Of a stretch of DNA of 64,000 nucleotides, positions 20,247-45,300 are shown in pieces. The position numbers and the translations under genes were made by a program. Each line of letters begins with the position of its first letter. Within the stretch, counting starts at the first letter, position 1. The stretch is from contig CM035351.1 of assembly GCA_020137815.1 (NCBI GenBank), positions 8,928,001 through 8,992,000 of the forward strand. The letters run 5' to 3'. This DNA is from Hormiphora californensis (taxonomy: Eukaryota; Animalia; Ctenophora). The notes under the pieces are model-generated. The model made no database searches. It saw only the letters and a program-made list of their open reading frames with translations, and was not told where the DNA came from.

Positions 20247-23200
20247 CTACAAACCAAGCTGACTACTGCAGCAAGAGGGGGGCTAGTGTGTGAGCCCATG
20301 AGTAGAGTGACAACACTAGACTTTACCGACAAAACAGACCGATAAAACAGACCGATATTTCAAAAAGCGGTGAGCAAACTCAATCTGAATCTTTTTGATA
20401 GTACCACAGTAGATTTGTAGAGATGGTATCTCCTTCCGGCTTGATCAACAGGGACAAAATGAAATTACGGTGCTTTTATTAAACGGAACAGTTTCGATGT
20501 CACAACATCTTCATCAGCCTCAAATTAATTTGTTTAAAGTAGTGTTGAAAAGTTTTCAAACTTTTCAACACTACTTTAAAAAAATTAATTTGAGGCTGAT
20601 GAAGATGTTGTGACATCGAAACTGTTCCGTTTAATAAAAACACCGTAGTTTCATTTTGTCCCTGTAGATCAAGCCGGAAGGAGATACCATCTCTACAAAC
20701 TATTATCATGCGGCTCATAAACAATTATCCGATACTTATCCTGTGTACCACAGTAGAGTATCAAAAAGAGTCAAACTACATCGATATGATAGACAAATTA
20801 ATGGATGCTAACCTTTTGATAATTCTGTTGACTGAACTGGCCCAAAGCCTCCTTGATGAATCTCCTCCCCCTCCTTTACTGCTCACACTCTCAGGAACTG
20901 TCTCCGGTGGAGGGCGACCCTTCGTAGTGGCTGTCCGACTCCTGAAAGGGTTCATGTTATGAGCACTATTTTTATAGGGTCTCGAGCTACCTTACAGAGC
21001 TATCTGACGAGGGCCGGGCTCGAACCGACAACCTCTGGGTTACGCCAGATATTTCTCAAATTTTCCTCCCTATTTAATCCTCAACAGATCTCATTCATAA
21101 TATGATACCCCCTTACCTCTTAGCAGAGGCATGTATCCTGTGTTCCTGTGACCCGTACAGCAGATCTGTTCTAGTGGTACTGGGTCTCTGTAGCACCCTG
21201 CTGTTCTGTTGTTTCCCCGATGTTACAGAGGAACGGGATGGGGCTGAGGGGCAGTCTACCTTCCCCCGAGTGAGCATTATGGACGCCAGGGCTTTCGATC
21301 GTTGTAGTAGGATCTGGAAAGATTGTTTGACATGATTATCGTTATCAGAAGTATGAACTCACTCTCAGATATTATCAAACGCCCTTGAATGTATAGCGAC
21401 TCAAATGTCGGCAGGTGAGTAGAACTTCGCTCCTAATAAAAGGCTGCAATAAAAGGCTGCAATAAAAGGCTGCAGAAAAAGGCTGCAGAAAAAGGCTGCA
21501 ATAAAAGGCTGCAGAAAAAGGCTGCAATAAAAGGCTGCAATAAAAGGCTGCAATAAAAGGCTGCAAGGTATCACGTATCCAACCAGACTAAAGCGGGAGA
21601 TAGACCGAATCGTCCTCCCCTAATAGTGTTTCGTATCACGTATCGGCTGTAAAGAGACCGAATCACCCTCCCCTAATTATAGTGATTCGTGTCACGTATC
21701 CAACTAGACCATAGGCGATAGAGAGAGCGAGATAGAGAGCGAGTACGAGTGAGAACTGAGAGAGTGAAAAATCAGAATCACGGTGTGGTATCACGTACCA
21801 TGGTATCCTCTAATGAAAAGTGGTTACCAATTGACAATGAGACCTCATCGGTCCCGATACGTGATTCTCTACCGCTATCCCACCGCTATGTATTTTCCAT
21901 TAGTCTTTCCGTATCGATCCACGATTCAGTAGAGGTACTACTACTACTACTACTCTGAGTGCCTGGGCTATCGCAAAGCGATATCGCCGGCACTGGAGAA
22001 GAGTCCCCCCGCCCTCTCCCCTCGCATGGAACTACCATCTGGCAGGTTCACAATATAACGGGAGATTTGGAGTGGGGCTCTTCTCGGGGTTGTTCTAGTC
22101 CTGTGTGGTTATTTTTTCCAGGAACGTTTATACTTTGATCTTGAACCACAGTTTCGTCTTCGTTTTCACTTAATCTTTGATACGGGATATGTGAGACCTA
22201 TCTGTCTGATTATGTTCAATTAGGTTAGAAGGCTAAACTAGCAAGGATTTGTTCTCAGTCCACAGTTTTGTTTAGTATGTATATATTGGTGGCGGGTGGG
22301 GTGGTTCGGGGTGGGTGGAGGCTAATAGGGCTACATATTTGGTTGAAAAAGGGAGATTCTACTTGAAGGGGAGTGAGAAAAATAGGGCTAGATATTTGGT
22401 TGAAAAAGGGAGATTCTACTTGAAGGGGAGTGAGAAAAATAGGGCTAGATATTTGGTTGAAAAAGGGAGATTCTACTTGAAGGGGAGTGAGAAAAATAGG
22501 GCTAGATATTTGGTTGAAAAAGGGAGATTCTACTTGAAGGGGAGTGAGAAAAATAGGGCTAGATATTTGGTTGAAAAAGGGAGATTCTACTTGAAGGGGA
22601 GTGAGAAAAATAGGGCTAGATATTTGGTTGAAAAAGGGAGATTCTACTTGAAGGGGAGTGAGAAAAATAGGGCTAGATATTTGGTTGAAAAAGGGAGATT
22701 CTACTTGAAGGGGAGTGAGAAAAATAGGGCTAGATATTTGGTTGAAAAAGGGAGATTCTACTTGAAGGGGAGTGAGAAAAATAGGGCTAGATATTTGGTT
22801 GAAAAAGGGAGATTCTACTTGAAGGGGAGTGAGAAAAATAGGGCTAGATATTTGGTTGAAAAAGGGAGATTCTACTTGAAGGGGAGTGAGAAAAATAGGG
22901 CTAGATATTTGGTTGAAAAAGGGAGATTCTACTTGAAGGGGAGTGAGAAAAATAGGGCTAGATATTTGGTTGAAAAAGGGAGATTCTACTTGAAGGGGAG
23001 TGAGAAAAATAGGGCTAGATATTTGGTTGAAAAAGGGAGATTCTACTTGAAGGGGAGTGAGAAAAATAGGGCTAGATATTTGGTTGAAAAAGGGAGATTC
23101 TACTTGAAGGGGAGTGAGAAAAATAGGGCTAGATATTTGGTTGAAAAAGGGAGATTCTACTTGAAGGGGAGTGAGAAAAATAGGGCTAGATATTTGGTTG

Positions 23201-25257
23201 AAAAAGGGAGATTCTACTTGAAGGGGAGTGAGAAAAATAGGGCTAGATATTTGGTTGAAAAAGGGAGATTCTACTTGAAGGGGAGTGAGAAAAATAGGGC
23301 TAGATATTTGGTTGAAAAAGGGAGATTCTACTTGAAGGGGAGTGAGAAAAATAGGGCTAGATATTTGGTTGAAAAAGGGAGATTCTACTTGAAGGGGAGT
23401 GAGAAAAATAGGGGTGGAATTGGGTTGAATTCTTTTATTGACATAATACCATGTAGAACATGTGTTTAGGTACCAGATATTATCTGTATAGCCATCTTAA
23501 TTCTTGGAGCAGCAAACAGTGGCCTTCTGAATTGCTACTGTCAGTAGAGGTAGTCAGTAACTACTGAGAGTGTTGGTCTAATGAGGTAGAAAATGGCCGA
23601 AATCTCGAGTTCGCTTTTCGTGATTTTAGCACTAGAGTCCGCTTACCGATCTATTGATTGAGCGTGTAGCACAATGAGTGCTACACGCACTCACAATATG
23701 ACAGGTGAACCACCCAACCACTTGGTTCACCTATCATAGTTTCTACCTCATTAGACCAACACTTTCAGTAGTTACTGACTACCTCTACTGAATCGTGGAT
23801 CGATACGGAAAGACTAATGGAGAATACATAGCGGTGGGATAGCGGTAGAGAATCACGTATCGGGACCGATGAGGTCTCATTGTCAATTGGTAACCACTTT
23901 TCATTAGAGGATACCTTGGTACGTGATACCACACCGTGATTCTGATTTTTCACTCTCTCAGTTCTCACTCGTACTCGCTCTCTATCTCGCTCTCTCTATC
24001 GCCTATGGTCTAGTTGGATACGTGACACGAATCACTATAATTAGGAGAGGGTGATTCGGTCTCTTTACAGCCGATACGTGATACGAAACACTATTAGGGG
24101 AAGACGATTCGGTCTATCCCCCGCTTTAGTCTGGTTGGATACGTGATACCTTGCAGCCTTTTATTGCAGCCTTTTATTGCAGCCTTTTATTGCAGCCTTT
24201 TTCTGCAGCCTTTTATTGCAGCCTTTTTCTGCAGCCTTTTATTGCAGCCTTTTATTGCAGCCTTTTATTAGGAGCGAAGTTCTACTCACCTGCCCAAATG
24301 TCCTAGTTACCTTTTCGTCTCTGGTTATCGCATTTCTGAAGGCTGTTTTCTCCCTGTCGATTGAAGTGAGTGTCTTAGCAAGTCTCTTATCTTCCTTAGT
24401 GTTGTATAGCTGGGCCAGTGTCTCACTGTTCCTGTTAACCGCCCTCACATTCACCGCGGTATAACTCTGAAATAGAGCGGTGTTAGGTACTTGTAGTGGT
24501 TCTTGCCAGACACTGACTGTACAACCTCGATGCCCGGTGCGAAGAGGACGGTCTTATATGAGACAAAGTGGTTCACACAGTACTGCTGTGTACTGTGTGA
24601 GCGGTGTTAGGTACTTAGTAGTGGTTCACAGTACTGTGTACGTGTGTTTTAGTTTTACACAGCACGATATATCCTACTTGACTCAAGATGTTAACAATTT
24701 TAACTGCCAAGTATTATAGATAAACTAAGGTCGTATGCAGCAGGTGAATAGTGTGACCATGATGATACTCATCTTGTGAGATACGAACAATGCTCATTTC
24801 ATACTGCAGTTAAATTGTGTCGGTGTGAGCTGAGAGGTATGCACTATGCGCCTCAAACCGGGCATTTAATGAGCTATGTAGTACTAAGCTAATAATGTGG
24901 TGGGGCCTTGTGAAACTAGTACCTGAGCAGAATCGTCCAGCTTCACTTGTTTATGGAAGGTTTTACAGAACATTCTAGTAATATCAAAATACACAACAGT
25001 GAGACACACACAAATATATGGGAACGATAAAAGTATAATATATATTTGCCTCTGTTGAGGGAGAGAGGGTACAGTGGGAGAGAGTGATAGAACATGTTAT
25101 AGAGAGAGCGAGAATATATTAAATACCGAATTGAGAGTGAATGATGGGTAGCCATGGTAACCCCCACTTCCTATCCCCCTTGTACCTGACTAGAGGTGGA
25201 GGAGGTGTGTCTTCGAGCCCTTTGAATGACCACAGACCGGGCCCGACGAAGTAGCAT
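20247..25257 (-). CDS. Small multi-exon gene of unknown function (MLLRRARSVV...SYTAVNVRAVNRNSETLAQLYNTKEDKRLAKTLTSIDREK...ILLQRSKAL...SRRLWASSVNRIIK)
   Basis: In-frame chain of GT-AG-bounded exons at about 25257-25186, 24466-24311, 21313-21116, 20941-20812 and 20265-20247. Its introns host the elements listed below. Confidence 0.55.
20551..20594 (+). other. Ctenophore spliced-leader exon sequence, processed copy (second copy on the - strand at 20519-20555)
   Basis: AGTTTTCAAACTTTTCAACACTACTTTAAAAAAATTAATTTGAG on +, and AAACTTTTCAACACTACTTTAAACAAATTAATTTGAG on -. Matches the Hormiphora/Pleurobrachia-type SL as I recall it. It is not followed by a GT donor, so it is not an SL RNA gene. Confidence 0.8.
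20595..20632 (+). ncRNA. Minimal type I hammerhead ribozyme core (mirror copy on the - strand at 20481-20518)
   Basis: CTGATGA (20596-20602), A, stem II GATGT-tgtg-ACATC, GAAAC (20618-20622), then TGTTCCGTT and AATAAA at 20633. Confidence 0.8.
21006..21046 (-). mobile_element. tRNA-derived fragment (T-arm/B box), probably a SINE head remnant
   Basis: Minus strand GTAACCCAGAGGTT-GTCGG-TTCGAGC-CCGGC-CCTCGTC. The 5' half of the tRNA is absent. Confidence 0.55.
21938..23540 (-). mobile_element. 5'-truncated non-LTR retroposon with a (TAG)n tail, inserted in the left TIR of the Merlin-like element
   Basis: 12-bp TSD TCAGTAGAGGTA at 21926-21937 and 23541-23552; (CTA)n at 21938. The minus strand begins with a short ORF end, VAIQKATVCCSKN*. 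Confidence 0.75.
22324..23413. repeat. 19 near-identical 57-bp tandem units inside the retroposon
   Basis: Unit AATAGGGCTAGATATTTGGTTGAAAAAGGGAGATTCTACTTGAAGGGGAGTGAGAAA. Only the first unit differs (one substitution). Confidence 0.98.
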
Positions 25258-27951: not shown

Positions 27952-29108
27952 ACCGCACGCACGCATAGTTTTGCTTGTTAATGTTCAGTTTAAAGTAGGA
28001 CTAGGAAGGAGAGAGAGAGTCCTCATGTTGAAATGAAGTAGCGATTGAACGAATACTAAACGAAACTACGCACTTGCATCGGCTTCTCGAAGACAATATT
28101 GCTGACTTCAGAATGATTTACAAGGCATTTATGAACTGGCAATGAAATGGTACAGGTCTGGACAAACCCCCGTCCGAGTGTCTCAAGAGATCACTAGGTT
28201 GCAGAAGAGTCTGTAATGATTACAGTCGAAGTAATCATGGGGGGAATGTTGTAGAACAATCTCCCATGCTCTAATCTCCCCTAATGGAACAGAGGGGACA
28301 GATAGGTGTGGGATAATGCTTGCAAAATGGAGACACAACATGTTAGTTGTTACCAGGTCCCAGGAGAGAGTGTGGCATGGACCCATCAAATCACCCCCAT
28401 CTCCCGGCTCCAATCCAACTTGTCTGTTTGTTCGTTTGTTCTGTAATTAGGCCAAGGGTTTTGAAGATTAAGATTTTGGAAGTTACTTAGCATGTTTTGG
28501 GGTGACGGGGGCACATGTTTATACTCCTCGCCCATACGGCCCTGTCTATCTATTAACTCCTAGTTAGAATCCTACTCTCGAATCCCTCTCATGTACCATG
28601 ATAGAGGAGGGAGCTGCAGGGGTGATTATTATACAGATCTGTCAGTGTGCGAGACAGTGTAACTGTCGCCATATTATTACTTTTTGTAATCTGTTTTACT
28701 TTATCTGATTTAAAAGTTTCGTGCCTAAATTTGAAAGTCAAGGAAGAAGGAAAGGTGTGCGGGCAGAGAGACAGAGGGACAGAGAGTGTGAGGGGTATTA
28801 TAATACTGAGAGAGGGATTAAAGTTGAGAGACTGCAGCTGTCTGGCACCGCCACACCCCGTTTCGATTCTGAGGCGACATAGTGCTGAGATCGGATGTTG
28901 CAACAATATTTCCCACACACGGCCACTCTAACTTTTGTTTAACACTTTCCATTTTATTCCTTTAACCATCGGCCCATCCCTACATTCTTTCACAGTCCTT
29001 TATCCTTATCTTTACTCTTTCACTCTGAGTGGATAGTTAAAGATACCAGGGATGGATAGTGAAAGATTGTGGGCGGGGACCAGAGTTCGTTGCTCTTGCG
29101 AGGATTCG

Positions 29109-29240
29109 TGTCACGTGATGCTGTCAGCTAATCAGAGGCCTGCATTGTCACGTGATGCTGTCAGCCAATCAGAGACCTGCATTGTTCGTGCGTGACTCAA
29201 TCACGCGGCCAGGCATCGCCCGAAGTGAAGGCGGGAAAGG
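29109..29240 (+). promoter_or_regulatory. Probable Pol II promoter: two 37-bp direct repeats, each with an E-box (TCACGTGA) and CCAAT-like box, then GGCGGGAA and a pyrimidine-rich first exon
   Basis: TGTCACGTGATGCTGTCAGC(T/C)AATCAGAG at 29109 and 29146; GGCGGGAA at 29231; donor AG|GTGAGT at 29291/29292. Confidence 0.6.
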
Positions 29241-29322
29241 TTCATTTCCTGTGTTCCTCATTTCCAATCCTCATCTCTCTCTTATCACAAGGTGAGTCCT
29301 GGCTATTTGCTTAGTTTCTCCT

Positions 29323-29446
29323 TTCCGGGAAAACCAAACAATCCATCCCTGATGCGGTACGCTACATCCGGCAGAGATTATCCTTTTGTCTCCTCAAAAC
29401 TCTCATCGTCAGCCTCCGGGGTTACCGAGGGAAGACTATTACACCA
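29323..29446 (+). ncRNA. Candidate intronic box H/ACA snoRNA
   Basis: Hairpin (TCCGG..CCGG), box H AGATTA at 29375-29380, hairpin (GTCTCCTC..GAGGGAAGAC), ACA at 29441-29443. Confidence 0.5.
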
Positions 29447-29574
29447 TACTATTCAAGTAGTATAGATATTAATTTATTGTATGTTTAATTTATTACCACA
29501 GTGTGCTTATATATAATTTGATTGTTATCCGTATAATTTTAAACCTCTTTTCCCTCTTAAAATTTGCTTAGTTT

Positions 29575-29684
29575 TTTACCCTTGGCCTTGTCAGGCCAAT
29601 TATTCTGTGACGGCGGTTCTAGCGCTAAAAGAAATGATATTAGGATCAGGCCTGATCTGTGTGTTACCCTGATATCCTACATTT
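29575..29684 (+). ncRNA. Candidate intronic box H/ACA snoRNA
   Basis: ANANNA hinge at about 29627, hairpin TAGGATCAGG..CCTGATATCCTA, ACA at 29679-29681. Confidence 0.45.
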
Positions 29685-30224
29685 GCTAATTTGCTTGAAT
29701 ATCTTTTAACATTGTTCTCTCTCTCAGATATCCTGTACATGTTTTGAGAGATCCTACTACTGTGTTGCTACTACCCAGCCCACCACTCCCAGCTGTAACA
29801 TCCCATCCAGCAACAATAAGGTAAGTGATAAATTAAGACAACTCAAGAAACTTTATTTTATTTCTATCTAAAATTGATAATCCAGTGGTGGCGGAACTGG
29901 GGGCATACATTGGTGACTAAATTGTATTCTAAATCCTTCAATCTCTCGCTAACACCGTCCTCTCAGGAGTTGTAAGAGGATATTGGTGAAGAGGATTTAA
30001 AAAGGAAAAGAGGAGACATTATTTGAGGATTTCTCGAGGATCTGTGGAGGATGTTGGACGTTTGTATCTTTGTGTCTCTACGAACAAGGTGAGAAACACT
30101 CTAGGGGGGGGGTCTTGATATCAATCCTGTCCTTCCTACAGTTAATTCACATTGGCCCACTGTGGGGGTACATTATTATGGCCACTGTGGGGGTACATTG
30201 CCTTATTGCACTTAGAATGAACTG

Positions 30225-30334
30225 TTGGGTCCCGGGTGCAACTTCCCTCTCGTAGTAGGATCAGATCCATATTCCCATAATAAGAATGCTTGTGTTCTGA
30301 ACTGTGAGAATCTATGCTGTATTCAATAACATGA
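30225..30334 (+). ncRNA. Candidate intronic box H/ACA snoRNA
   Basis: TGGG..CCCA hairpin, ATAATA hinge, GAATG..TATTC hairpin, ACA at 30329-30331. Confidence 0.35.
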
Positions 30335-30401
30335 CCTTGCGTTATACGTCAAGCAACCTTTGGTGTATGTTTTGGCGGTAACCAGCCGATGACCAAGCAT
30401 A

Positions 30402-31155
30402 GGGTAAGCTGGGGTGAAATGGCCCGCGGGGTAAAGTGGCCCATGTATGGGGCAAAGTGGCCTTAGTTATTACATGTGGTCACGTGACTTTTTCTCCAGC
30501 GGAGACCTGCTCGTTCTGTTCCGAATTTTCGCTTTAAAACTGCTGTCATTTCTGTTTGGGTTGGCCGATTTTAATTTTGCAAAAACTGCCAGTTAGGCTT
30601 TACAATCCTCTAAAACGTGGTATAAAAATTTTTGAAGAAATTGGCATTTTTGTTGTCTTAATTGTCAATTTTGTGAAATCGGGGCGAATATGGCCCACTC
30701 TCCGGGGCAAAGTGGTCCGGTCTGGGGCAAAGTGGCCCACCTCTAGGACCAATGAAATGGCGCCTGCAATACCACGTGATATTGGAATGCACAAAAATGT
30801 AGTACAGACGATCAAATTAGGGGCAAAGTGGCCCATGTTCCGGTGCAGAACATGGGCCACTTTGCCCCTAGTTTGATCGTTTCGTCTAACAACACCAGGC
30901 ACGTGATAAAATCGAGCAATGCTATTGGCTTGGGCCACTTTGCCCCGGTGCAAATTTTCCAAAAAACGCCTCACCAAACTATTTGAATTGATTAATTAAC
31001 CCATTAAATAAAACTTGTAGATATTAAAATTTAGCTCGGCTGAAAGGAAAAGGTTTCATTGGATAGCCTATATAATTTTTTTCTTCCTGCTGTATAAATT
31101 GCGTATTTTAGAACCTAAAACGTTAAAAGTGGGCCACTTTTACCCCAGCTTACCC
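30402..31155. mobile_element. MITE with TA target duplication (Tc1/mariner/pogo-type) and GGGGCAAAGTGGCCC subterminal repeats
   Basis: TA|GGGTAAGCTGGGGT...ACCCCAGCTTACCC|TA, with multiple internal GGGGCAAAGTGGCC motifs in both orientations. Confidence 0.85.
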
Positions 31156-31445
31156 TACATATCCAAACATCGGTTGTGGGGATGGTATCCAATTGAGGAT
31201 GTGATTCAAGAATGGGAATGATTTGGTATCGGTGCTCGCATGCCATAACACCTGTGTTCAACTTTTTATGGCAATATGGATCTGTCCAACTGTCTTGCGT
31301 CTAATAGGATGGGGGTGTTGAATCTTTGGTCGTTACCCGACAGGTCTCTTACCATGTTGCACTTGGCTGCTGGAGGGTTATTTGCTGTTCTCTTTTTCAA
31401 ATTGGGGTTATCGGTACTTTTTATGTCAATTTTTTACTATGTCAT

Positions 31446-34400
31446 TGTCAATTGTCCTTGACCCCCAAAGTTATTAACCCGGGTGTTACTCATCAAATCT
31501 GAGCATAGCAGTTGTCGCTGCGCCCAGTTAACTCGATAACTGGTTAAAATGTAGACAGTAGATTAGTATAACAGAGCTGCCAATTATATGATCAATATAC
31601 GTTAGTAGTTAATATATTCAAAATTTCTGATGTTCGAGATGTCCAATTGGCTGGGTTGGACCGTTTTTGGCTTGAAATGTTGTAGCAGTCCTAGCACCTG
31701 CAGCTGTGTGACTGGCTCCGGACTGTCTGTTATGACTTATCAAGGTCTGCCGAAATCATTTCCTAATTCTAATTCACACATACTGTTATAGTGGGCTATT
31801 GTCGGCCGTCAACTGACTTTAGCTTCCTGTTTTGGTGTGCTTTAGAATTTGGAAGTGATTTAATAGGAACTTGGTAGGTCATAGCACCTGTATTTTGTCT
31901 GTAGTGAGATGAGTTATTTTTTTGTGTTCTGCCCCCTGGGCACTCTGGGTTTATAAACACTAAGCAGTCAAGGCCATGCGTTTAATTGAAGAAACTTCTC
32001 AAGTTCTGATTTCATTTACCTAACTCCCCCCCCCCAACCCCAGGTCCTTTGAGGTCAACATACCACGTTGCAGTTTGAACCGAAAACACTTGGAACCTAC
32101 AGAGCCTTGAACAACGGTATGTTATCTTAGCAGTTTGACAACACATTTTCTTCTAATTTGTCAACTTTTGAGTCACCCATGCAGCTCGCTTGGTCTCCAA
32201 CTATAGAATTGAAATGGATTACTGCAGGGGTATCCATGCACACTAGTAAGGCTGGCCTACTTGCACTAAACTTTCCATTTGATCTGTTGAAACTGTAATG
32301 GAGTTTCAGGCTACATTCTAAACTGCTCACCTGGTAGCCTTTCTTTGTGAAACCGTGAAGGGGTTTCCTGCATTATAATATTTAGAAGCACTGAATTTCT
32401 GGTTCATATGTCAATTGTCCTTGACCCCCAAAGTTATTAACCCGGGTGTTACTCACCAAATCTGAGCTTAGTGCAGTTGGATCGCTGCGCCCAGTTAACT
32501 CGATAACTGGTCAAAATATAGAAAGTAGATTGTAGATTTAAATCAGAGCTGCCAATTATATAATCAATATAAGTTAAGTAGTTAATATATTCAAAATTTC
32601 TGATGTTCGAGAGGTCCAATTGGCTGAATTGGACCGTTTTTGGCTTGAAATGTTGTAGCAGTCCTAGCACCTGCAGCTGTGTGACTGGCTCCGGGCCACG
32701 AGATCTTATGGCGAACTTCTGTTAACTGATGTATACCGCACACAATAATGGGAACGTACAAATGTAAAGTTAATGCTAAGCACAGAGAGCTTTGTTCGGC
32801 TGGATGTGTTCTGGTAATGCGTTGACAGCAGCGCATTGCCGGGGGCGGCAACACAAACTGGCGAGTAGTCGGGGCGATTGACAACCAAACCGGCTACTTG
32901 TAAAGACACGACGTGGTAGGTCCATTCTCCCGGGTCCGCCCAATAGTGGAGGTGGGATCGTCAATCGACCAGTCGGTAGGTTGGTTGGCGGTTCTGTGTC
33001 ACCAGCGCCGTTGGACTGTTGTTTGGGGTTCACCATAAGGGACAATGAGAAGCTTCACAACCTTCTACAGACTCCTAACGTCCCCCTCATTGTTCCCATT
33101 TGATATCAGTTATACACAGTAGTTTGCAAACCAAATATAGTGGGCTCTAGTCAAGTCGATTGTTGAAGTTATAAAATTTGGGAAATTAAAAGGCCGCCAA
33201 GTCCTGCACCTCTCCCACCTTAATTATCTTTGATGACAACCCCTAGTTAACAATGTATTTCTCTTCAACTAAACACCACCAGGACTTGGCACCAAGGCCA
33301 GGTGTTTAGTTGAAGAAGTCTTGATTCCATGTACCTAACTCCCCTCCCCCAACCCCAGGTCCTTTGAGGTCAACATACCACGCCGCTGTTTGAGTTGAAA
33401 ACACTTGGAACCTACAGAGCCTTGAACAACGGTATGTTATGATAGCAGTTTGACAGCACATTTTCTTCTAATTTGTCAACTTTTGAGTCACCCATGCAGC
33501 TCGCTTGGTCTCCAACTATAGAATTGAAATGGATTACTGCAGGGGTATCCATGCACACTAGTAAGGCTGGCCTACTTGCACTAAACTTTTTGATCTGTTG
33601 AAACTGTAATGGAGTTTCAGGCTACATTCTAAACTGCTCACCTGGTAGCCTTTCTTTGTGAAACCGTGAAGGGGTTTCCTGCATTATAATATTTAGAAGC
33701 ACTGAATTTCTGGTTCATATGTCAATTGTCCTTGACCCCCAAAGTTATTAACCCGGGTGTTACTCATCAAATCTGAGCACAGCAGTTGTCGCTGCACCCA
33801 GTTAACTCGATAACTGGTCAAAATATAGAAAGTAGATTGTAGATTTAAATCAGAGCTGACAATTATATAATCAATTATATAAGTTAAGTAGTTAATATAT
33901 TCAAAAATTCTGATATTCGAGAGGTCCAATTGACTGGATTGGACCGTTTTTGGCTTGAAATGTTGTAGCAGTCCTAGCACCTGCAGCTGTGTGACTGGCT
34001 CGGGCCAAGAGATCTTATGGCGAACTTCTGTTAACTGATGTTTACCGCACACAATAATGGGAACGTACAAATGTAAAGTTAATGCTAAGCACAGAGAGCT
34101 TTGTTCGGCTGGATGTGTTCTGGTAATGCGTTGACAGCAGCGCATTGCCGGGGGCGGCAACACAAACTGGCGAGTAGTCGGGGCGATTGACAACCAAACC
34201 GGCTACTTGTAAAGACACGACGTGGTAGGTCCATTCTCCCGGGTCCGCCCAATAGTGGAGGTGGGATCGTCAATCGACCAGTCGGTAGGTTGGTTGGCGG
34301 TTCTGTGTCACCAGCGCCGTTGGACTGTTGTTTGGGGTTCACCATAAGGGACAATGAGAAGCTTCACAACCTTCTACAGACTCCTAACGTCCCCCTCATT

Positions 34401-37400
34401 GTTCCCATTTGATATCAGTTATACACAGTAGTCTGCAAACCAAATATAGTAGGGTCTAATGAAGTCGATTGTTGAAGTTATAAAATTTGGGAAATTAAAA
34501 GGCCGCCGAGTCCTGCACCTCTCCCACCTTAATATCTTTGATGACAACCCCAAGTTAACAATGTATTTCTCTTCAACTAAACACCACCAGGACTTGGCAC
34601 CAAGGCCTGGTGTTTAGTTGAAGAAGTCTTGATTCCATGTACCTAACTCCCCTCCCCCAACCCCAGGTCCTTTGAGGTCAACATACCACGCCGCTGTTTG
34701 AGTTGAAAACACTTGGAACCTACAGAGCCTTGAACAACGGTATGTTATGATAGCAGTTTGACAGCACATTTTCTTCTAATTTGTCAACTTTTGAGTCACC
34801 CATGCAGCTCGCTTGGTCTCCAACTATAGAATTGAAATGGATTACTGCAGGGGTATCCATGCACACTAGTAAGGCTGGCCTACTTGCACTAAACTTTTTG
34901 ATCTGTTGAAACTGTAATGGAGTTTCAGGCTACATTCTAAACTGCTCACCTGGTAGCCTTTCTTTGTGAAACCGTGAAGGGGTTTCCTGCATTATAATAT
35001 TTAGAAGCACTGAATTTCTGGTTCATATGTCAATTGTCCTTGACCCCCAAAGTTATTAACCCGGGTGTTACTCACCAAATCTGAGCTTAGTGCAGTTGGA
35101 TCGCTGCGCCCAGTTAACTCGATAACTGGTCAAAATATAGAAAGTAGATTGTAGATTTAAATCAGAGCTGCCAATTATATAATCAATTATATAAGTTAAG
35201 TAGTTAATATATTCAAAAATTTCGATGTTCGAGAGGTCCAATTGGCTGAATTGGACCGTTTTTGGCTTGAAATGTTGTAGCAGTCCTAGCACCTGCAGCT
35301 GTGTGACTGGCTCGGGGCCACGAGATCTTATGGCGAACTTCTGTTAACTGATGTATACCGCACACAAAAATGGGAACGTACAAATGTAAAGTTAATGCTA
35401 AGCACAGAGAGCTTTGTTCGGCTGGATGTGTTCTGGTAATGCGTTGACAGCAGCGCATTGCCGGGGGCGGCAACACAAACTGGCGAGTAGTCGGGGCGAT
35501 TGACAACCAAACCGGCTACTTGTAAAGACACGACGTGGTAGGTCCATTCTCCCGGGTCCGCCCAATAGTGGAGGTGGGATCGTCAATCGACCAGTCGGTA
35601 GGTTGGTTGGCGGTTCTGTGTCACCAGCGCCGTTGGACTGTTGTTTGGGGTTCACCATAAGGGACAATGAGAAGCTTCACAACCTTCTACAGACTCCTAA
35701 CGTCCCCCTCATTGTTCCCATTTGATATCAGTTATACACAGTAGTCTGCAAACCAAATATAGTAGGGTCTAATGAAGTCGATTGTTGAAGTTATAAAATT
35801 TGGGAAATTAAAAGGCCGCCGAGTCCTGCACCTCTCCCACCTTAATATCTTTGATGACAACCACAAGTTAATAATGTGTTTCTCTTCAACTAAACACCAC
35901 CAGGACTTGGCACCAAGGCCTGGTGTTTAGTTGAAGAAGTCTTGATTCCATGTACCTAACTCCCCTCCCCCAACCCCAGGTCCTTTGAGGTCAACATACC
36001 ATGCCGCTGTTTGCGTTGAAAACACTTGGAACCTACAGAGCCTTGAACAACGGTATGTTATGATAGCAGTTTGACAGCACATTTTCTTCTAATTTGTCAA
36101 CTTTTGAGTCACCCATGCAGCTCGCTTGGTCTCCAACTATAGAATTGAAATGGATTACTGCAGGGGTATCCATGCACACTAGTAAGGCTGGCCTACTTGC
36201 ACTAAACTTTCCATTTGATCTGTTGAAACTGTAATGGAGTTTCAGGCTACATTCTAAACTGCTCACCTGGTAGCCTTTCTTTGTGAAACCGTGAAGGGGT
36301 TTCCTGCATTATAATATTTAGAAGCACTGAATTTCTGGTTCATATGTCAATTGTCCTTGACCCCCAAAGTTATTAACCCGGGTGTTACTCACCAAATCTG
36401 AGCTTAGTGCAGTTGTCGCTGCGCCCAGTTAACTCGATAACTGGTCAAAATATAGAAAGTAGATTGTAGATTTAAATCAGAGCTGACAATTATATAATCA
36501 ATATAAGTTAAGTAGTTAATATATTCAAAAATTCCGATGTTCGAGAGGTCCAATTGGCTGAATTGGACCGTTTTTGGCTTGAAATGTTGTAGCAGTCCTA
36601 GCACCTGCAGCTGTGTGACTGGCTCGGGGCCACGAGATCTTATGGCGAACTTCTGTTAACTGATGTATACCGCACACAAAAATGGGAACGTACAAATGTA
36701 AAGTTAATGCTAAGCACAGAGAGCTTTGTTCGGCTGGATGTGTTCTGGTAATGCGTTGACAGCAGCGCATTGCCGGGGGCGGCAACACAAACTGGCGAGT
36801 AGTCGGGGCGATTGACAACCAAACCGGCTACTTGTAAAGACACGACGTGGTAGGTCCATTCTCCCGGGTCCGCCCAATAGTGGAGATGGGATCGTCAATC
36901 GACCAGTCGGTAGGTTGGTTGGCGGTTCTGTGTCACCAGCGCCGTTGGACTGTTGTTTGGGGTTCACCATAAGGGACAATGAGAAGCTTCACAACCTTCT
37001 ACAGACTCCTAACGTCCCCCTCATTGTTCCCATTTGATATCAGTTATACACAGTAGTCTGCAAACCAAATATAGTAGGGTCTAATGAAGTCGATTGTTGA
37101 AGTTATAAAATTTGGGAAATTAAAAGGCCGCCGAGTCCTGCACCTCTCCCACCTTAATATCTTTGATGACAACCACAAGTTAACAATGTATTTCTCTTCA
37201 ACTAAACACCACCAGGACTTGGCACCAAGGCCAGGTGTTTAGTTGAAGAAGTCTTGATTCCATGTACCTAACTCCCCTCCCCCAACCCCAGGTCCTTTGA
37301 GGTCAACATTTACATACCACGCCGCTGCTTGGGTTGAAAACACTTGGAACCTACAGAGCCTTGAACAACGGTATGTTATGATAGCAGTTTGACAGCACAT

Positions 37401-39125
37401 TTTCTTCTAATTTGTCAACTTTTGAGTCACCCATGCAGCTCGCTTGGTCTCCAACTATAGAATTGAAATGGATTACTGCAGGGGTATCCATGCACACTAG
37501 TAAGGCTGGCCTACTTGCACTAAACTTTCCATTTGATCTGTTGAAACTGTAACGGAGTTTCAGGCTACATTCTAAATTGTTCATCTAGTAGCCTTTCTTT
37601 GTGAAACCGTGAAGGGGTTTCCTGCATTATAATATTTAGAAGCACTGAATTTCTGGTTCATATGTCAATTGTCCTTGACCCCCAAAGTTATTAACCCGGG
37701 TGTTACTCACCAAATCTGAGCTTAGTGCAGTTGGATCGCTGCGCCCAGTTAACTCGATAACTGGTCAAAATATAGAAAGTAGATTGTAGATTTAAATCAG
37801 AGCTGACAATTATATAATCAATATAAGTTAAGTAGTTAATATATTCAAAAATTCCGATGTTCGAGAGGTCCAATTGGCTGAATTGGACCGTTTTTGGCTT
37901 GAAATGTTGTAGCAGTCCTAGCACCTGCAGCTGTGTGACTGGCTCGGGGCCACGAGATCTTATGGCGAACTTCTGTTAACTGATGTATACCGCACACAAA
38001 AATGGGAACGTACAAATGTAAAGTTAATGCTAAGCACAGAGAGCTTTGTTCGGCTGGATGTGTTCTGGTAGTGCGTTGACAGCAGCGCATTGCCGGGGGC
38101 GGCAACACAAACTGGCGAGTAGTCGGGGCGATTGACAACCAAACCGGCTACTTGTAAAGACACGACGTGGTAGGTCCATTCTCCCGGGTCCGCCCAATAG
38201 TGGAGATGGGATCGTCAATCGACCAGTCGGTAGGTTGGTTGGCGGTTCTGTGTCACCAGCGCCGTTGGACTGTTGTTTGGGGTTCACCATAAGGGACAAT
38301 GAGAAGCTTCACAACCTTCTACAGACTCCTAACGTCCCCCTCATTGTTCCCATTTGATATCAGTTATACACAGTAGTCTGCAAACCAAATATAGTAGGGT
38401 CTAATGAAGTCGATTGTTGAAGTTATAAAATTTGGGAAATTAAAAGGCCGCCGAGTCCTGCACCTCTCCCACCTTAATATCTTTGATGACAACCACAAGT
38501 TAACAATGTATTTCTCTTCAACTAAACACCACCAGGACTTGGCACCAAGGCCAGGTGTTTAGTTGAAGAAGTCTTCATTCCATGTACCTAACTCCCCTCC
38601 CCCAACCCCAGGTCCTTTGAGGTCAACATACCACGCCGCTGCTTGGGTTGAAAAGACTTGGAACCTACAGAGCCTTGAACAACGGTATGTTATGATAGCA
38701 GTTTGACAGCACATTTTCTTCTAATTTGTCAACTTTTGAGTCACCCATGCAGCTCGCTTGGTCTCCAACTATAGAATTGAAATGGATTACTGCAGGGGTA
38801 TCCATGCACACTAGTAAGGCTGGCCTACTTGCACTAAACTTTCCATTTGATCTGTTGAAACTGTAATGGAGTTTCAGGCTACATTCTAAATTGCTTCATC
38901 TAGTAGCCTTTCTTTGTGAAACCGTGAAGGGGTTTCCTGCATTATAATATTTAGAAGCACTGAATTTCTGGTTCATATGTCAATTGTCCTTGACCCCCAA
39001 AGTTATTAACCCGGGTGTTACTCACCAAATCTGAGCTTAGTGCAGTTGGATCGCTGCGCCCAGTTAACTCGATAACTGGTTAAAATGCAGACAGTAGATT
39101 GTAGATGTAAATTAGAGCTGCCAAC
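31446..39125 (+). repeat. Tandem array of about 1.31-kb units (5 full plus partial flanking copies), each one exon plus one structured intron
   Basis: Exon-to-exon periods of 1315, 1308, 1313, 1312 and 1320 bp. Copies differ by scattered substitutions and indels. Confidence 0.97.
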
Positions 39126-39698
39126 TATACAATACAGCAGGCTTTGTGAAATTCCCCACGGTCATAGCTCCATCTTCTGATGAGATGTGAAATTTTAGGA
39201 CTCCTACTACTCTACTAGGAGGGTTGTGACCCTTAAAAAGATATTATACAACATCTTTAGTTGTATTGGTCGAACGGTGGATATCACACTTTCTATCCTC
39301 AAATAACAATGAATGACCATTTAGCCAGCTGTAGTTGTGTGTTGTAGTTTAGGGCTGGGTTTCATTATGTTTCCTTCATTTTAGTTTGATGTTAACCGTT
39401 GTATTTTCCACAGGAACTGCACAGATACACAGGATTGATTTTGTAGAGATGCGACACTCCAGGAAAAGCTGATCGATCTTGTTGAGTAACTCAACAAGAT
39501 CGATCAAGATGTCAATTATTGACATGGTGGTAATAACTCTAGAGTTGGTATAAAGTTGGAAATTTGAGAGTTGGAATACTTTTGACGCGTATTGGACATT
39601 TGAGAGTTTTGACTTATTTGTAGTTTTACAGTATTGTATTGCTTTGTCTAAATGTGGATACTTATTAAAATTGTTGTATTTGTTGTAAAACCCAGGTA

Positions 39699-39928
39699 AA
39701 AACTGTTATAGCCCTAACCAACACTTGATTTCTGTGTATGCTTCCCACAGTGCGAAGATAGAGACGTCATAAAGTCAACTCATAGGTTAGAAAAATATTG
39801 ACAAGATCTTTCTAACCCCTGAAAGATCTTGACAAGATTAATCTGAGTTGACTTTATGATGTCTCTATCTTCGCACTGTGGGAAGTAAACACAGAAACCA
39901 AGTCTTGGTTAGGGCTATAATAGTTTTT
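39699..39928. mobile_element. About 230-bp imperfect palindrome (foldback/MITE-like)
   Basis: AAAACTGTTATAGCCCTAACCAA...GTCAACTCA versus TGAGTTGAC...TTGGTTAGGGCTATAATAGTTTT. Confidence 0.7.
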
Positions 39929-40257
39929 GCTTGATTTTAACTTGAATAACGTGTGTTGATAATGATATGTACTGCTTTTGAACCGTTTTGCAAAACAATA
40001 CTTATTTGACCAAAATAAAATTTACGAGTTTTTTATTGTTTGTTTGTTTGTTTTATCATGGTTCCGCGCAGCCCCTGTCAGAGCAGACCGGAAATGAAAT
40101 TGCGTGCTGATCAGTTCCTCGGGATCAAAATATTCTTGTTTTATGGGTTGTCGATGCGCGTATTTGTTTTGCGCGTTTCTCGCGCGGCTCTTATTTAAAT
40201 TATTTTAGACAAAATAAAATATCACGACGCGACGAGATTTCAGGGGCCAGCGTTAAA

Positions 40258-41013: not shown

Positions 41014-41211
41014 ATCTGGGTGTTTGGTGAGTGCTGACAAACGGTTTTTTAGGGTTAGGGCTAAAGTGGGGTTAGGGTTTGGGTTGGGTTCCCCCTACCA
41101 GATAAACTTTGAATTAGCCAAAACGGTTGAGTGGTTTAGCGGTTAGAGCCATTTTAGTGAATCAACTTTTTGGCAGCACGCACCTGTAAACAGGCCGCCA
41201 AACACCCAGAT
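41014..41211. mobile_element. Small inverted-repeat element with internal telomere-like (TTAGGG) motifs
   Basis: ATCTGGGTGTTTGG ... CCAAACACCCAGAT; TTAGGGTTAGGG...GGGTTAGGGTTTGGG at about 41049-41090. Confidence 0.5.
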
Positions 41212-41975: not shown

Positions 41976-42341
41976 TTTGTTAGTAAATTAACCTCGTTCC
42001 ATAGGTTCAATGAGTTCTAAAAAAGCTTCACAGCATGCTGTGATGGACGACGATTACTTACCTGCTAAGGAAGAGGTGTCGACTGAAGAGAAGGTCTGGT
42101 TAGATACATGGGATTTAGAACCTGGGTTTAAACACTACGTCAGAGAGAACTACAACACAAAATCATCCGATAAAAATACTCCTAAATTAACGTCTAAGTC
42201 TAACTAACAAATAACAATGTACCTATATAACTTTTTAATTTCTCTGTTTTTCCATTGCAATTTTGAGATACCATGATACTTGTTTTAGCTTCCATAACAA
42301 TATGTTGCCCATCGATAACTTCACAACAACCCTCTTTAGCA

Positions 42342-45300
42342 ATGTTTCACTGCAGCAAACAGAGGAGCATGATGTTCAATTCAGAGCGAGATATACAAGA
42401 AAAACGAGCAGCTGTAAATGAGAGATTCAAGGAGGAAAACCCTGCGTGTTCAGAGTACTTTATGACACCAGAAGAGGAACGCCTTCTGTGTCAGAAGTTT
42501 GAGAGGGAGCTCCTTCGCTTTTGTAAGGTCAGTACACTCGTATAGCCTCCTTCCGAGTGCTAAACACAGTGGTTAATTAAACAAGTATCAGCGTTTTCAA
42601 TCAGCCATCAATTTGTTATATTCCCAACATTTCTCTCCTTTCTGTCCCTCTCTTTTACTCCTCAGCTCTCTCTCTCTCTTATATCACATGTTTTGAGTGT
42701 TAGTGATTAGTCAATCGAGTTGTTGCTTGCGTAGAAAACTTCTTAGAATTGTCTTTGGTTGGTTCAGCAGGACGGCAAAGTTTCGTTATGAATATCAGTC
42801 CGTTGACAGAGAGAGTCAGTAGAATTACTATAACTGATAGAGAGAACACCTGCGGATAGAATGGTGTAGGATTAGTGTGTTCATTCGCATTGATTGATAG
42901 TCTTAACTAAACTGTGGTTACCTGTTTTTTCCCTGGAATGAGAACCAAGGCCGGAACAACAGTAAAAGCCAGTGCCAGAGCCATAATGGAGCAAAAGAAG
43001 ATGTGCATAGATTCTTTGTAGTTGTTTGGGATTTTCCTGGTCAGGAATCCCAGATAACTTGAGACTAGGAGTAGGAGGGTGGAGTATGCCATAAGAGCAA
43101 TGGATAGGGTATCCTCAGGAGGTTTGCACAGTGCCGTGATGGACATATTCTCCTGGAGATAGTCCTCAACGGATATCTTTCTCGTGAACCTAGTTGGAGT
43201 TGCTACATTTGGCTTCTTTCTCAAAAACATTTCCTCGCATTGGATTCTGAGATGTGCTGATGAGATAAAGTATATTTGTCGATTAACTGTACCTGAATCG
43301 TGGATCTAGAAAGCTCCAAAGCAACATCAATATGAAAGGTATCGCCAGAATAAAGGAGTAGAAATAGACGTACCAACCCTTCACATATCTGGGAATAGAG
43401 ATTAGTAATACAGTCGGACCCAGATTTACCGGGCACCCAGATTTACCGGTAAATCGGGATCCGACTGTACCTCATCTGCAGTGGTGAGAGAAATATTCAA
43501 ATTATTTTGCTTCTTACTTGACATATTGTCGTTTTGTTGGGAAGTTGAATATCACCATAATCCGTAGTGTTCGTATCACTACAGGAACGAGAACGAGAAG
43601 AGAGAACAAATGTGCTGTTAGCACCACGCCATCACACACCACCTGGCCTGGGAGGGGGAGGTTGACACTGTGTTAGTGCTCAGGAATAGTTCCAAGTAAA
43701 GGTGTACAGCAGGGAACAAAATACAGGGCAGGTGAGAAGAAGCCCGACCGGTTAAGGGACCCTTTAAAGTGAGAGAGAACAGCAGGGATTTTCACAAAAA
43801 GTTGTCTGGATACTCCTTGATGGCGAACTAAAACTTTAGTGAAAACCGCATGTCTCTAGCATGTTTTTGAAAATTGAGCTAACACATGCGAGACGCACCA
43901 TAATGGGCCCATAATGCTCTCTTTTCGGAGCGTGTTCGTCTCGGCATTGCGCGTCGCGGGTGCAGGAGCTAGCCCGGGTGAGCGAGCTAACAATAGTGAA
44001 CTTCCATGCGATATAGTACATCGCGCGCATGTAATTGCACTATTGTTAGCTTGTTCGCCCGGGTTTGGTACAGTCTGCGACGCGCAGTGTTGAGACGAAC
44101 ACGTTCCGAAAATGCAGGATTATGGGCGTAACTGCATGTACAATATGAATTTACGCCCATTATAGGCCCATAATGGTGCGTCTCGCATGTGTTAGCTCGA
44201 TTTTCAAAAACATGCTAGAGACATGCGGTTTTCACTAAAGTTTTAGTTAGCCATCAAGGAGTATCCAGATAACTTTTTGTGAAAATCCCTGCTGTTCTCT
44301 CTCACTTTAAGGGACCCTTTTAGGGACCCTTTAAGGGACCCTTTTAGGGACCCATTAAGGGACCCTAGAAAGTTAAGGGACCCTTTAAGGGACCCTAGAA
44401 AGTTAAGGGACCCTTTAAGGGACCCTAGAAAGTTAAGGGGCCCTTTAATGAGGTAGAACGAATCGTGAGCAGTACCCTCGTATCAGTTCACATTGTAAGC
44501 GGTTCCACTGCTAATGAGGTGCACCGAATCGTGGTCAGTACCCTCGTATCAGTACACATTGCAAGCGGTTCCGTCGCTAATGAGGTACACCGAATCGTGA
44601 GCAGTCCCTTAAGGCCAGAGGGGGGGGGGGGGGGGGGTCGACCGATTTTTGACCCCCATTTTGGGCCATTTTCGGGGTTACCATCATGTGATAGCGCTTG
44701 GCATACCGGACCAGATGGATATGACAAAATGTGTTGTGCGCGAACGGTCTGGGAGAAAAATGGGGTTAACTTTTGGCCTGATATCAATGTAAACCCCATT
44801 ATTTTAGGACTGGTAGGGGTAGGGACATCTGACTAAGTGTCAAACGCTGTGTCTTAACAAGAGGGATCACTCTGCAAATTTTTACACCATAAATCCAACT
44901 GATCTTTGAATTATTTGAGGTTAACTAAATCTGGAAAAATGGCTATTATGGCTCTCCTCTAAACCCCATCGTTTCACAGGACTAGCCAATTCCTGAAATA
45001 ACGGCTAGGATCTAGACCTTGTCGTTTGGTACACTTGTTCTACAGACCTAGGAGCCTGAAACTTATGTAGCGATTTTTGATTTAGGTCCCCGTTCAAAAA
45101 TTATTGAGGTTAACGTGGATATTTTCTCGATCAAAAATGTGTTAACCTCCATAATTTTTGAACGGGGACCTAAATCAAAAATCGCTACATAGGTTTCAGG
45201 CTACTAGGTCTGTAGAACAAGTGTGCCAAACGACAAGGTCTAGATCCTAGCCGTTATTTCAGGAATTGGCTAGTCCTGTGCAAAACTGGGGTTTAGAGGG

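Follow-up and report, generated by a model that had tools for sequence, protein, structure and literature searches.

A block of about 420 nt, present in five tandem copies within the 64-kb stretch of ctenophore DNA analysed here (the window), is very probably under selection for RNA structure. We lean, by a modest degree, towards the view that this block is released from an intron as a stable RNA, and consider it rather doubtful that such an RNA would be bound by H/ACA proteins. Taken as a whole, the explanation that we prefer, a stable RNP RNA that would be released from introns and amplified in tandem, is a tentative one built on sequence features.

The block lies in a tandem array (31442-39133) with a unit of about 1.31 kb: the first unit carries a different insert, five full units follow, and one is partial. 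All five copies reported in the initial annotation of this DNA were found at full length at the sites given there, and the five-copy array supports the copy-number amplification that it had proposed; no further copy was found elsewhere in the 64-kb window. The copies are as follows.

32711..33127, + strand: structured RNA block, copy 1 (417 nt; from fold z-score and homologue changes)
34020..34436, + strand: block copy 2 (from sequence comparison)
35333..35749, + strand: block copy 3 (from sequence comparison)
36645..37061, + strand: block copy 4 (from sequence comparison)
37965..38381, + strand: block copy 5 (from sequence comparison)

Variation between the copies is concentrated outside the block, in which 5 of 417 columns vary versus 44 of 824 in the intron flanks (P 2e-4); when events are counted instead, the figures are 5 and 35 (P 3e-3). 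The variable positions comprise the three substitutions named previously, G32952A, A32817G and T33124C, all of which are present, and two further differences, A32733T and T32746A. Downstream of about 33140 the copies diverge and contain perfect inverted repeats, typical of DNA events. The 64-kb window as a whole contains many inverted repeats and MITE-like elements.

When folded as a single sequence, the + strand of the block reaches a minimum free energy (MFE) of -160.9 kcal/mol (z -4.8), which none of 100 shuffles equalled, whereas the - strand gives z = +0.34; the fold is thus strand-specific, and the difference between strands lies 2.4 SD past the composition-based prediction from 148 window tiles. 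A nearby DNA inverted repeat (30775-30924) folds on both strands (z -8.9 and -11.8). The long-range closing stems and the hairpins of 14 bp (32811-32842) and 12 bp (32861-32901) described in the initial annotation were confirmed in the sequence, and the complementary words that it named all lie where it had placed them. The main elements of the predicted fold are given below, with P0046 denoting one of the homologues introduced in the next paragraph.

32711..32756, + strand: 5' arm of the basal stem, with a 14-nt 5' bulge (mean pair probability 0.92-0.99)
32779..32810, + strand: hairpin c, with a 3x3 internal loop (double change in P0046; end pair broken)
32811..32842, + strand: hairpin d, 14 bp (pair probability ~1.0 for a 12-bp core)
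32861..32901, + strand: hairpin f, 12 bp, with a conserved 17-nt loop containing CGATTGAC (from pair probabilities and homologues)
32955..32994, + strand: hairpin h, 16 bp including 5 G-U pairs, containing GTCAATCG (mean pair probability 0.97)
33039..33076, + strand: hairpin i, sequence-variable (from pair probabilities and homologues)

The basal stem is made up of helices 32711-17/33121-27, 32719-32/33103-19 and 32747-56/33091-100, and one of its pairs is removed by T33124C in four of the five copies. The longest uninterrupted helices of the block measure 14-16 bp, and the segment 32919-32956 is weakly structured, with several local folds of near-equal energy.

Homologues of the block were reached through its stop-free antisense frames, which led to junk ORFs in a protein collection. 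At the amino acid level, P0041 and P0042 show 67% identity (E 2e-18) and P0043 to P0046 show 96, 82, 96 and 60%, respectively; when read back codon by codon, with TGA taken as Trp in the P0046 group, the homologues are ~90-95% identical at the DNA level. Homologue DNA was in this way deduced from protein, and only changes forced by an amino acid were counted, silent changes being invisible. P0046 spans 32593-33090 with 37 forced changes in 496 positions, P0041 spans 32848-33090 with 21 in 242 (counts leave out an indel zone at 32864-70 and 32892-96), and P0044 spans 32594-32783 with 10 in 189. The near-identical cluster members P0042, P0043, P0045 and P0047-53 were left out of the counts, and coverage runs as far as 33090, short of the 3' arm of the basal stem. 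These records could come from other species or could be paralogues, including paralogous repeat copies. Their longest contigs measure 820-1657 bp, many close to the unit length, as might be expected of collapsed multi-copy arrays. The one addition from a full HMMER search, P0054, is a repeat protein that matched by chance and was rejected. At the DNA level, pattern and similarity searches of viral contigs, plasmids and phages gave no homologue of the block; those of metagenome contigs gave none in one search and, in another, 110 pattern matches of which none was confirmed. Exact look-up of ten window ORFs found none of the ten.

The changes seen in these homologues argue for the conservation of pairing. 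Among 88 pairs with a probability of at least 0.9, a set fixed before the homologues came to light, covered changes affect 10; pairing is preserved in 6 of these, may be preserved in 3, depending on the codon, and is lost in 1. The seven unambiguous pairs give P 0.02 against a chance rate of keeping of 0.4; counting the three codon-dependent pairs in favour lowers this value to P 0.002, and counting them against raises it to P 0.17. By element, A32782-U32807 of hairpin c becomes C-G through a double change in P0046, hairpin f has one change that keeps pairing and two that may (the indel zone of P0041 being left out), and all three forced changes of P0041 in hairpin h retain pairing. In hairpin d, where P0046 has no forced change, the inter-copy substitution A32817G retains pairing as G-U.

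The homologues also call for helices that the single-sequence fold does not contain. Helix X is absent both from the MFE fold and from the model first proposed, and it is the sole helix among 534 possible ones with two double changes, a result matched by 6 of 500 permutations. Its pair G32845-U33011 becomes U-A in P0046 (P0041 shares the change on the 3' side), and G32847-C33009 becomes A-U in P0041, the latter being deduced from the stop that ends the ORF exactly where the helix needs it. In helix Y, C32909-G32996 is altered on both sides in P0046, and pairing is retained under one of two codons. Together, the homologue changes support four of the predicted hairpins and helix X. The MFE helices 32841-47/33079-85 and 32940-44/33010-14, by comparison, are broken in the homologues and were rejected; the revised model lies ~11 kcal/mol above the single-sequence MFE and adds the following elements.

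32844..33012, + strand: helix X (32844-49/33007-12), which closes the central domain (two double changes)
32905..33000, + strand: helix Y (32905-10/32995-33000), which closes a three-way junction (two-sided change in P0046)
32919..32956, + strand: longest run (38 nt) free of forced changes in both long homologues (P0046, P0041)

The 38-nt run is a candidate functional core. The second-longest unchanged run (32871-32894, 24 nt) falls within hairpin f. Conservation as such extends beyond the block: forced changes in the upstream flank versus the block number 7/118 (three of them at the alignment end) versus 30/378 in P0046, and 5/117 versus 5/72 in P0044. Flank conservation on a par with that of the block is also compatible with a promoter or with recent divergence.

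The description of the block as doubly pseudoknotted is not supported. Forced changes disrupt its second pseudoknot (GGGCGG/CCGCCC) in both types of long homologue, through a U-C mismatch in mid-helix in P0046 and at two positions in P0041, and we discount it both for this reason and because the GGGCGG strand covaries with its partner in helix X. The first pseudoknot pairs CGATTGAC (32875-82) with GTCAATCG (32960-67). Here the complementarity claimed is real and both strands are unchanged in P0046 and P0041, but covariation is absent, and since the GTCAATCG strand lies within the supported 16-bp hairpin h, this pairing would be possible only as an alternative state. The helix formed by GGGACAATGAG, put forward as a competing arm of a switch, falls in an indel-rich stretch and is broken in both long homologue types. 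As single-sequence observations, the named pseudoknot words are not beyond chance: an 8-bp complement is present in 69% of 1000 shuffles, an 8-mer complement of the loop arises anywhere in 11% of 2000 shuffles, and complements of 6 bp turn up everywhere, 30 being seen where 24 are expected.

Around the array, splice signals outline what may be a larger transcription unit, and the intronic placement of the copies given in the initial annotation is a prediction from the splice-signal patterns around the units. The predicted features are these.

29226..39720, + strand: putative non-coding host transcript (inner borders all AG/GT; ends guessed)
29226..39720, + strand: predicted host exons, the first ending at 29291, then 29728-29820, 29967-30088, six repeats, and the last from 39414
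32044..32116, and from 33359, 34667, 35980, 37292 and 38612, + strand: putative 73-nt non-coding exon, six times (from splice signals)
32613..32694, + strand: upstream cassette with a 9-bp hairpin, a U5 run and a block of ~62 nt (common to six units)
31727..31888, + strand: first-unit payload, an imperfect long hairpin of ~160 nt (in the same slot as the block)

The repeated exon, which is 79 nt in one unit, has a CCTAAC-pyrimidine-CAG acceptor and a GTATGT donor, and the block sits inside a putative intron of 1.24 kb, ~230 nt from the acceptor. In the predicted transcript, the first exon is pyrimidine-rich, the longest stop-free stretch is 63 aa and the longest Met-ORF 56 aa. The setting looks like a non-coding host gene of the snoRNA type with a repeated exon; CCAAT, CACGTG and GC-box words stand ahead of it at 29060-29200. 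An Rfam scan of 29200-32050 found no recognised snoRNA in the other host introns, and a mir-422 match in that interval was rejected, its site being a DNA inverted repeat. The ~62-nt block of the cassette (32629-32691) is invariant in all six units, ahead of both payloads, and the cassette folds no better than shuffles (z -1.2). The hairpin payload of the first unit folds with z -8.4 on the + strand and -4.2 on the - strand. Its global alignment with the 420-nt block does not reach significance, with 59-274 of 500 shuffles scoring as well, and two segments picked by hand, and so chosen post hoc, were equalled by 0 of 2000 shuffles. Elsewhere, the window holds an RRP12 exon (Pfam RRP12_HEAT). 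It matches EukProt record sb/3461742 at 96% identity across 61% of the query and is 33-40% identical to the proteins of other named animals.

We compared the block with the known families of structured RNA. An Rfam scan of the whole 64 kb, a check proposed alongside the initial annotation, gave no match at the gathering threshold; 32690-33170 gave none at E 10, and 32400-33800 and 29200-32050 gave only chance-level matches. The reported lack of an RNase P/MRP P4 and of an SRP signature was borne out, with no CR-V match, no SRP helix-8 motif and a single loose CR-I-like word inside the basal stem. Box C/D RNAs and C/D scaRNAs are bounded by C (RUGAUGA) and D (CUGA) boxes; the block has no C box within one mismatch, and its sole CTGA is at the 5' end. 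The ctenophore telomere repeat is TTAGGG; on either strand no telomere match of at least 7 nt was found, the only 6-mer being CCTAAC at 33074, near the 3' end. The suggestion of a ribozyme-like RNA found no backing in a hammerhead core (CUGANGA/GAAA) or an Rfam ribozyme match, the latter search being the one that covered the remaining ribozyme classes. HDV-like ribozymes form a nested double pseudoknot with a catalytic C, and a loose HDV descriptor matched three times on the + strand (one shared core) and once on the - strand. Resemblances to U6, 7SK, HCV IRES IIId and human U17 were given no weight.

Box H/ACA RNAs are laid out as a hairpin, an ANANNA H box, a second hairpin and an ACA three nt from the 3' end; the top of the pocket lies 14-16 nt from the box, the pocket shows bipartite complementarity to the site of an rRNA or snRNA uridine, and the RNA binds dyskerin, Nop10, Nhp2 and Gar1. 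At the 3' end of the block, the following signals come into question.

33114..33133, + strand: possible end signals ACA 33114, ACA 33116 and the ANANNA-type AAACCA 33128 (chance 5-8% each per point)

The initial annotation, noting that AAACCA follows the block, proposed that it could be the giant 5' domain of an H/ACA RNA. This fared poorly: no stable hairpin with an ACA lies downstream. This reading is weak because the 3' hairpin-ACA is missing, the downstream sequence varies between copies, and an ANANNA falls within 0-3 nt of a random point with a chance of 7.6%. ACA 33116 lies 15 nt below helix 32747-56/33091-100 but was picked after the fact and is paired in the predicted fold, and with it as the end no ANANNA occurs in 32690-32730. 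Two 15-nt pocket registers are possible (33112 to 33128 and 33100 to 33116), both post hoc and each with a chance of 5-8% per point. The best recurring pocket match to rRNA is 5+3 bp in seven non-ctenophore rDNA loci with partial 28S, and neither antisense nor pocket searches against these non-ctenophore rRNAs gave anything above shuffles; the targets were contaminant rDNA, of which 11 of 53 loci were long enough and 6-7 were used. A search of viral contigs for eukaryotic 18S or U2 found none. For U17, no TATTCC occurs within 32600-33358 that could represent the m1 motif AUAUUCCU(A/G/U), which U17 carries on the 5' side of its 3' pocket. In place of the m2 motif AAACCAU, after which U17 has a lower stem and an ACA, the sequence offers AAACCAA at 33128, the next ACA lying only at 33236. 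The m1 motif is near-invariant in the 14 of 14 U17/snR30 species listed in one account (PMC7601244).

As a candidate, the large structured non-coding RNA claimed at the outset is borne out, for the + strand, by the structure-preserving changes in the homologues. Several other explanations of the block have to be weighed against the intron-released RNA, and one that we consider unlikely makes it an independent gene of the snRNA type in tandem, with the cassette 32629-32691 as promoter and the exons incidental. The invariance of that cassette in six units ahead of both payloads, its conservation in the homologues to the same degree as the RNA, and homologue contigs of 0.8-1.7 kb, which approach the unit length and may be collapsed units, would all suit such a gene. 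Against it stand the well-formed splice signals of each unit and the 9-bp hairpin of the cassette, in which A-to-G changes stay G-U on the + strand and so point to RNA and away from DNA. Transcription by Pol III is unlikely in particular because the block ends without a U-run and there is neither B box nor TATA; no T4 occurs on the + strand between 32642 and 33358, whereas Pol III RNAs (7SK, SRP, Y, vault) carry an oligo-U terminator at the 3' end along with the motifs of their family. A lower probability still attaches to a two-state regulatory or catalytic RNA acting within the host pre-RNA, in which the f loop CGATTGAC would compete with the 3' strand of hairpin h for GTCAATCG. In its favour, neither strand of pseudoknot 1 has a forced change in P0046 or P0041, while three positions beside GTCAATCG do change. 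Of the eight pairs that GTCAATCG makes in the hairpin, three are G-U and would become Watson-Crick on pairing with the loop, and opening costs 8.2 kcal/mol against 13.5 for stacking, before loop penalties. The missing covariation, however, tells against this switch, as do two conserved 8-mers that are unremarkable at ~90% identity, the frequency of the loop complement in shuffles, and the absence of ribozyme signatures beyond weak HDV-type matches.

It is improbable that the host yields hairpin precursors of endogenous small RNAs as a Dicer or ADAR substrate, of which the imperfect 160-nt hairpin of the first unit would be the plain form. Mnemiopsis is described as having no miRNAs but abundant endo-siRNAs with structured clusters (PMC6211395), which would suit such a role; dicing, on the other hand, needs no compensated branched interior, and the uninterrupted helices do not exceed 14-16 bp. 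That the block belongs, in highly diverged form, to a known family (U17/snR30, RNase P/MRP, telomerase RNA or 7SK) retains a small probability, since Rfam can miss diverged MRP RNAs: that of Trichoplax failed the Rfam covariance test and was nevertheless judged genuine (PMC2655684). Ctenophores, moreover, are absent from the main text of a survey of animal telomerase RNAs (PMC8480181), and AAACCAA at 33128 shares six of seven letters with U17 m2, with complementarity to the fungal 18S rm2 region. The block nevertheless shows no m1, no ACA after m2, no P4, no telomere template of at least 7 nt and no C/D pair, the GAUC word in hairpin h is altered in P0041, and Rfam returns nothing at E 10. Transposon or satellite debris with the fold as a by-product is, in our estimate, very improbable. 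The window is full of inverted repeats and of elements like MITEs, the flank is conserved like the block, and the homologue records might be paralogous copies of a repeat. MITEs and foldback elements, however, have dispersed copies and terminal inverted repeats that pair equally on both strands; local DNA inverted repeats fold on both strands and the block on one, a search for inverted arms of at least 14 nt found none, the changes keep pairing, and the 64 kb holds no other copy.

Returning to an intron-released stable RNP RNA, we propose that the host transcript would be spliced as predicted and the intron debranched and then trimmed by exonucleases, after which the released RNA would accumulate as intronic snoRNAs do. 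The basal stem would halt trimming, possibly with H/ACA proteins on ACA 33116, in which case the mature RNA would lack the outermost stem, which could explain why T33124C is tolerated in four of five copies. The branched interior (helix X, the f loop and the 38-nt core) may then offer a docking scaffold for protein or RNA, much as do U17 and telomerase RNA, which are H/ACA RNAs but not guides. A modification guide is unlikely, given that the pocket-facing bulge varies among copies and homologues and that complementarity to non-ctenophore rRNA does not rise above shuffles. Tandem duplication of exon-plus-intron units would raise the dose of the RNA, and the first unit, where another structured payload takes the place of the block, counts in favour of this explanation.

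The large structured RNAs of animals form a short and long-known list. The block is a candidate for an uncatalogued structured RNA, with a corrected fold and at most one alternative of the pseudoknot type, and would be either a new RNP RNA or a housekeeping RNA diverged beyond recognition in an early-branching animal; either outcome would enlarge the inventory of animal non-coding RNAs. A bolder proposal, which we regard as unlikely, is a new ctenophore-specific class of large, dosage-amplified intronic RNA that would switch between two conserved states (hairpin h or f-loop pairing) and act as a catalyst or scaffold in a way unlike any known snoRNA, telomerase RNA or RNase P/MRP RNA, the conserved upstream cassette of its host gene being able to carry varied structured payloads. 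In the literature covered, which lies largely outside subscription journals, we found no description of a ctenophore structured non-coding RNA or of an RNA such as this one. The corrected helix map can directly guide both structure probing and the building of a covariance model.

Several known systems invite comparison. In insects and crustaceans, RNase P RNA is embedded in introns and has a terminal stem and a bulged hairpin near its 5' end; the block is likewise large and structured with a terminal stem and a 5' bulged hairpin, but lacks P4 (CR-I/CR-V) and has no Rfam match to RNase P/MRP. The SNORD115/SNORD116 arrays consist of an exon-plus-intron unit in tandem within a non-coding host, with one RNA per unit, and in this the array of the block is alike, although their payloads are short box C/D RNAs and the block is a 420-nt branched fold without a C/D pair. 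Animal telomerase RNA resembles the block in size, in its multi-domain fold and in a possible 3' end of the H/ACA type; unlike it, the block has neither the template, a single-stranded stretch of 1.5-2 telomere repeats ahead of a pseudoknot (PMC8480181), nor a complete H/ACA domain, and is multi-copy and putatively intronic. Stable, structured, non-capped intronic RNAs (sliRNAs and snotrons) are described from NAP-seq; these too are structured and derive from introns, but end at splice sites or snoRNA ends (PMC10948791), whereas the block lies in the interior of its putative intron. U17/snR30 (SNORA73) is likewise intronic and multi-copy, with a length of 200-600 nt and a large variable domain; it is housed in introns of a non-coding host of the 5'TOP type in mammals, a host like that predicted here, and in six introns of rpS8 in Xenopus (PMC7601244). 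The block differs from U17 in lacking m1, in matching six of seven m2 letters with no ACA after them, and in that its 420-nt domain would occupy the place of a short hairpin of U17. Although the block fails membership of each family tested, its biogenesis and organisation would resemble those of U17 or of the SNORD115/116 arrays.

The 420-nt predicted structured RNA has left traces in P0041-P0053, protein-collection records that are homologous to the 420-nt block or its flank; P0041, P0044 and P0046 were read back codon by codon. These are junk antisense ORFs from metagenome protein sets, in which the non-coding RNA family is still readable. Part of them were translated with TGA as Trp, which is a pitfall when DNA is inferred back from protein.

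Within intron 1 of the putative host, positions 29348-29358 form a perfect 11-nt complement of a conserved 28S stretch, present at three rDNA loci. This complementarity is no better than that of shuffled sequences (8-15/30), and no D box was found 3' of it. The host and its surroundings contain several repeats and protein genes:

6451-7997, palindromic tandem array (155-bp x10) within the RRP12 gene region
21410-24294, large inverted-repeat element, 528-bp arms around a 57-bp x19 array
30400-31157, MITE-like element, 20-nt terminal inverted repeats and numerous internal GGGGCAAAGTGGCCCA repeats
39470-39941, 3' end of the putative host, foldback sequence with 98-nt arms and some shorter palindromes
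41050-41085, short, degenerate TTAGGG-like tract, distant from chromosome ends
42267-53800, cyclin-like gene, Cyclin_C_2 match at 52856
42910-43305, minus strand, 7tm_3 match of a class C GPCR gene
44307-46205, large inverted-repeat element, ~300-bp arms, tandem repeats inside

The Rfam match to mir-422 arises from the MITE-like element and was rejected as spurious. The cyclin-like gene is presumably cyclin H, and the GPCR gene appears, from the sequence, to be nested on the minus strand in one of its introns.

Two further features belong to the repeat units themselves:

32613-32694, upstream cassette, ~62 nt without variation in all six units and conserved also in homologues
31727-31888, + strand, strong, strand-biased 160-nt hairpin (fold z -8.4 on +)

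In the 9-bp hairpin of the cassette, A-to-G changes keep the pairs as G-U on the + strand. The 160-nt hairpin occupies, in the first unit, the slot of the 420-nt block; on its 3' side lie AGATGA (31907), then a hairpin that is weak, and ACA (31957). Together with these downstream elements, it could possibly represent an H/ACA RNA or an endo-siRNA precursor, separate from the 420-nt block.
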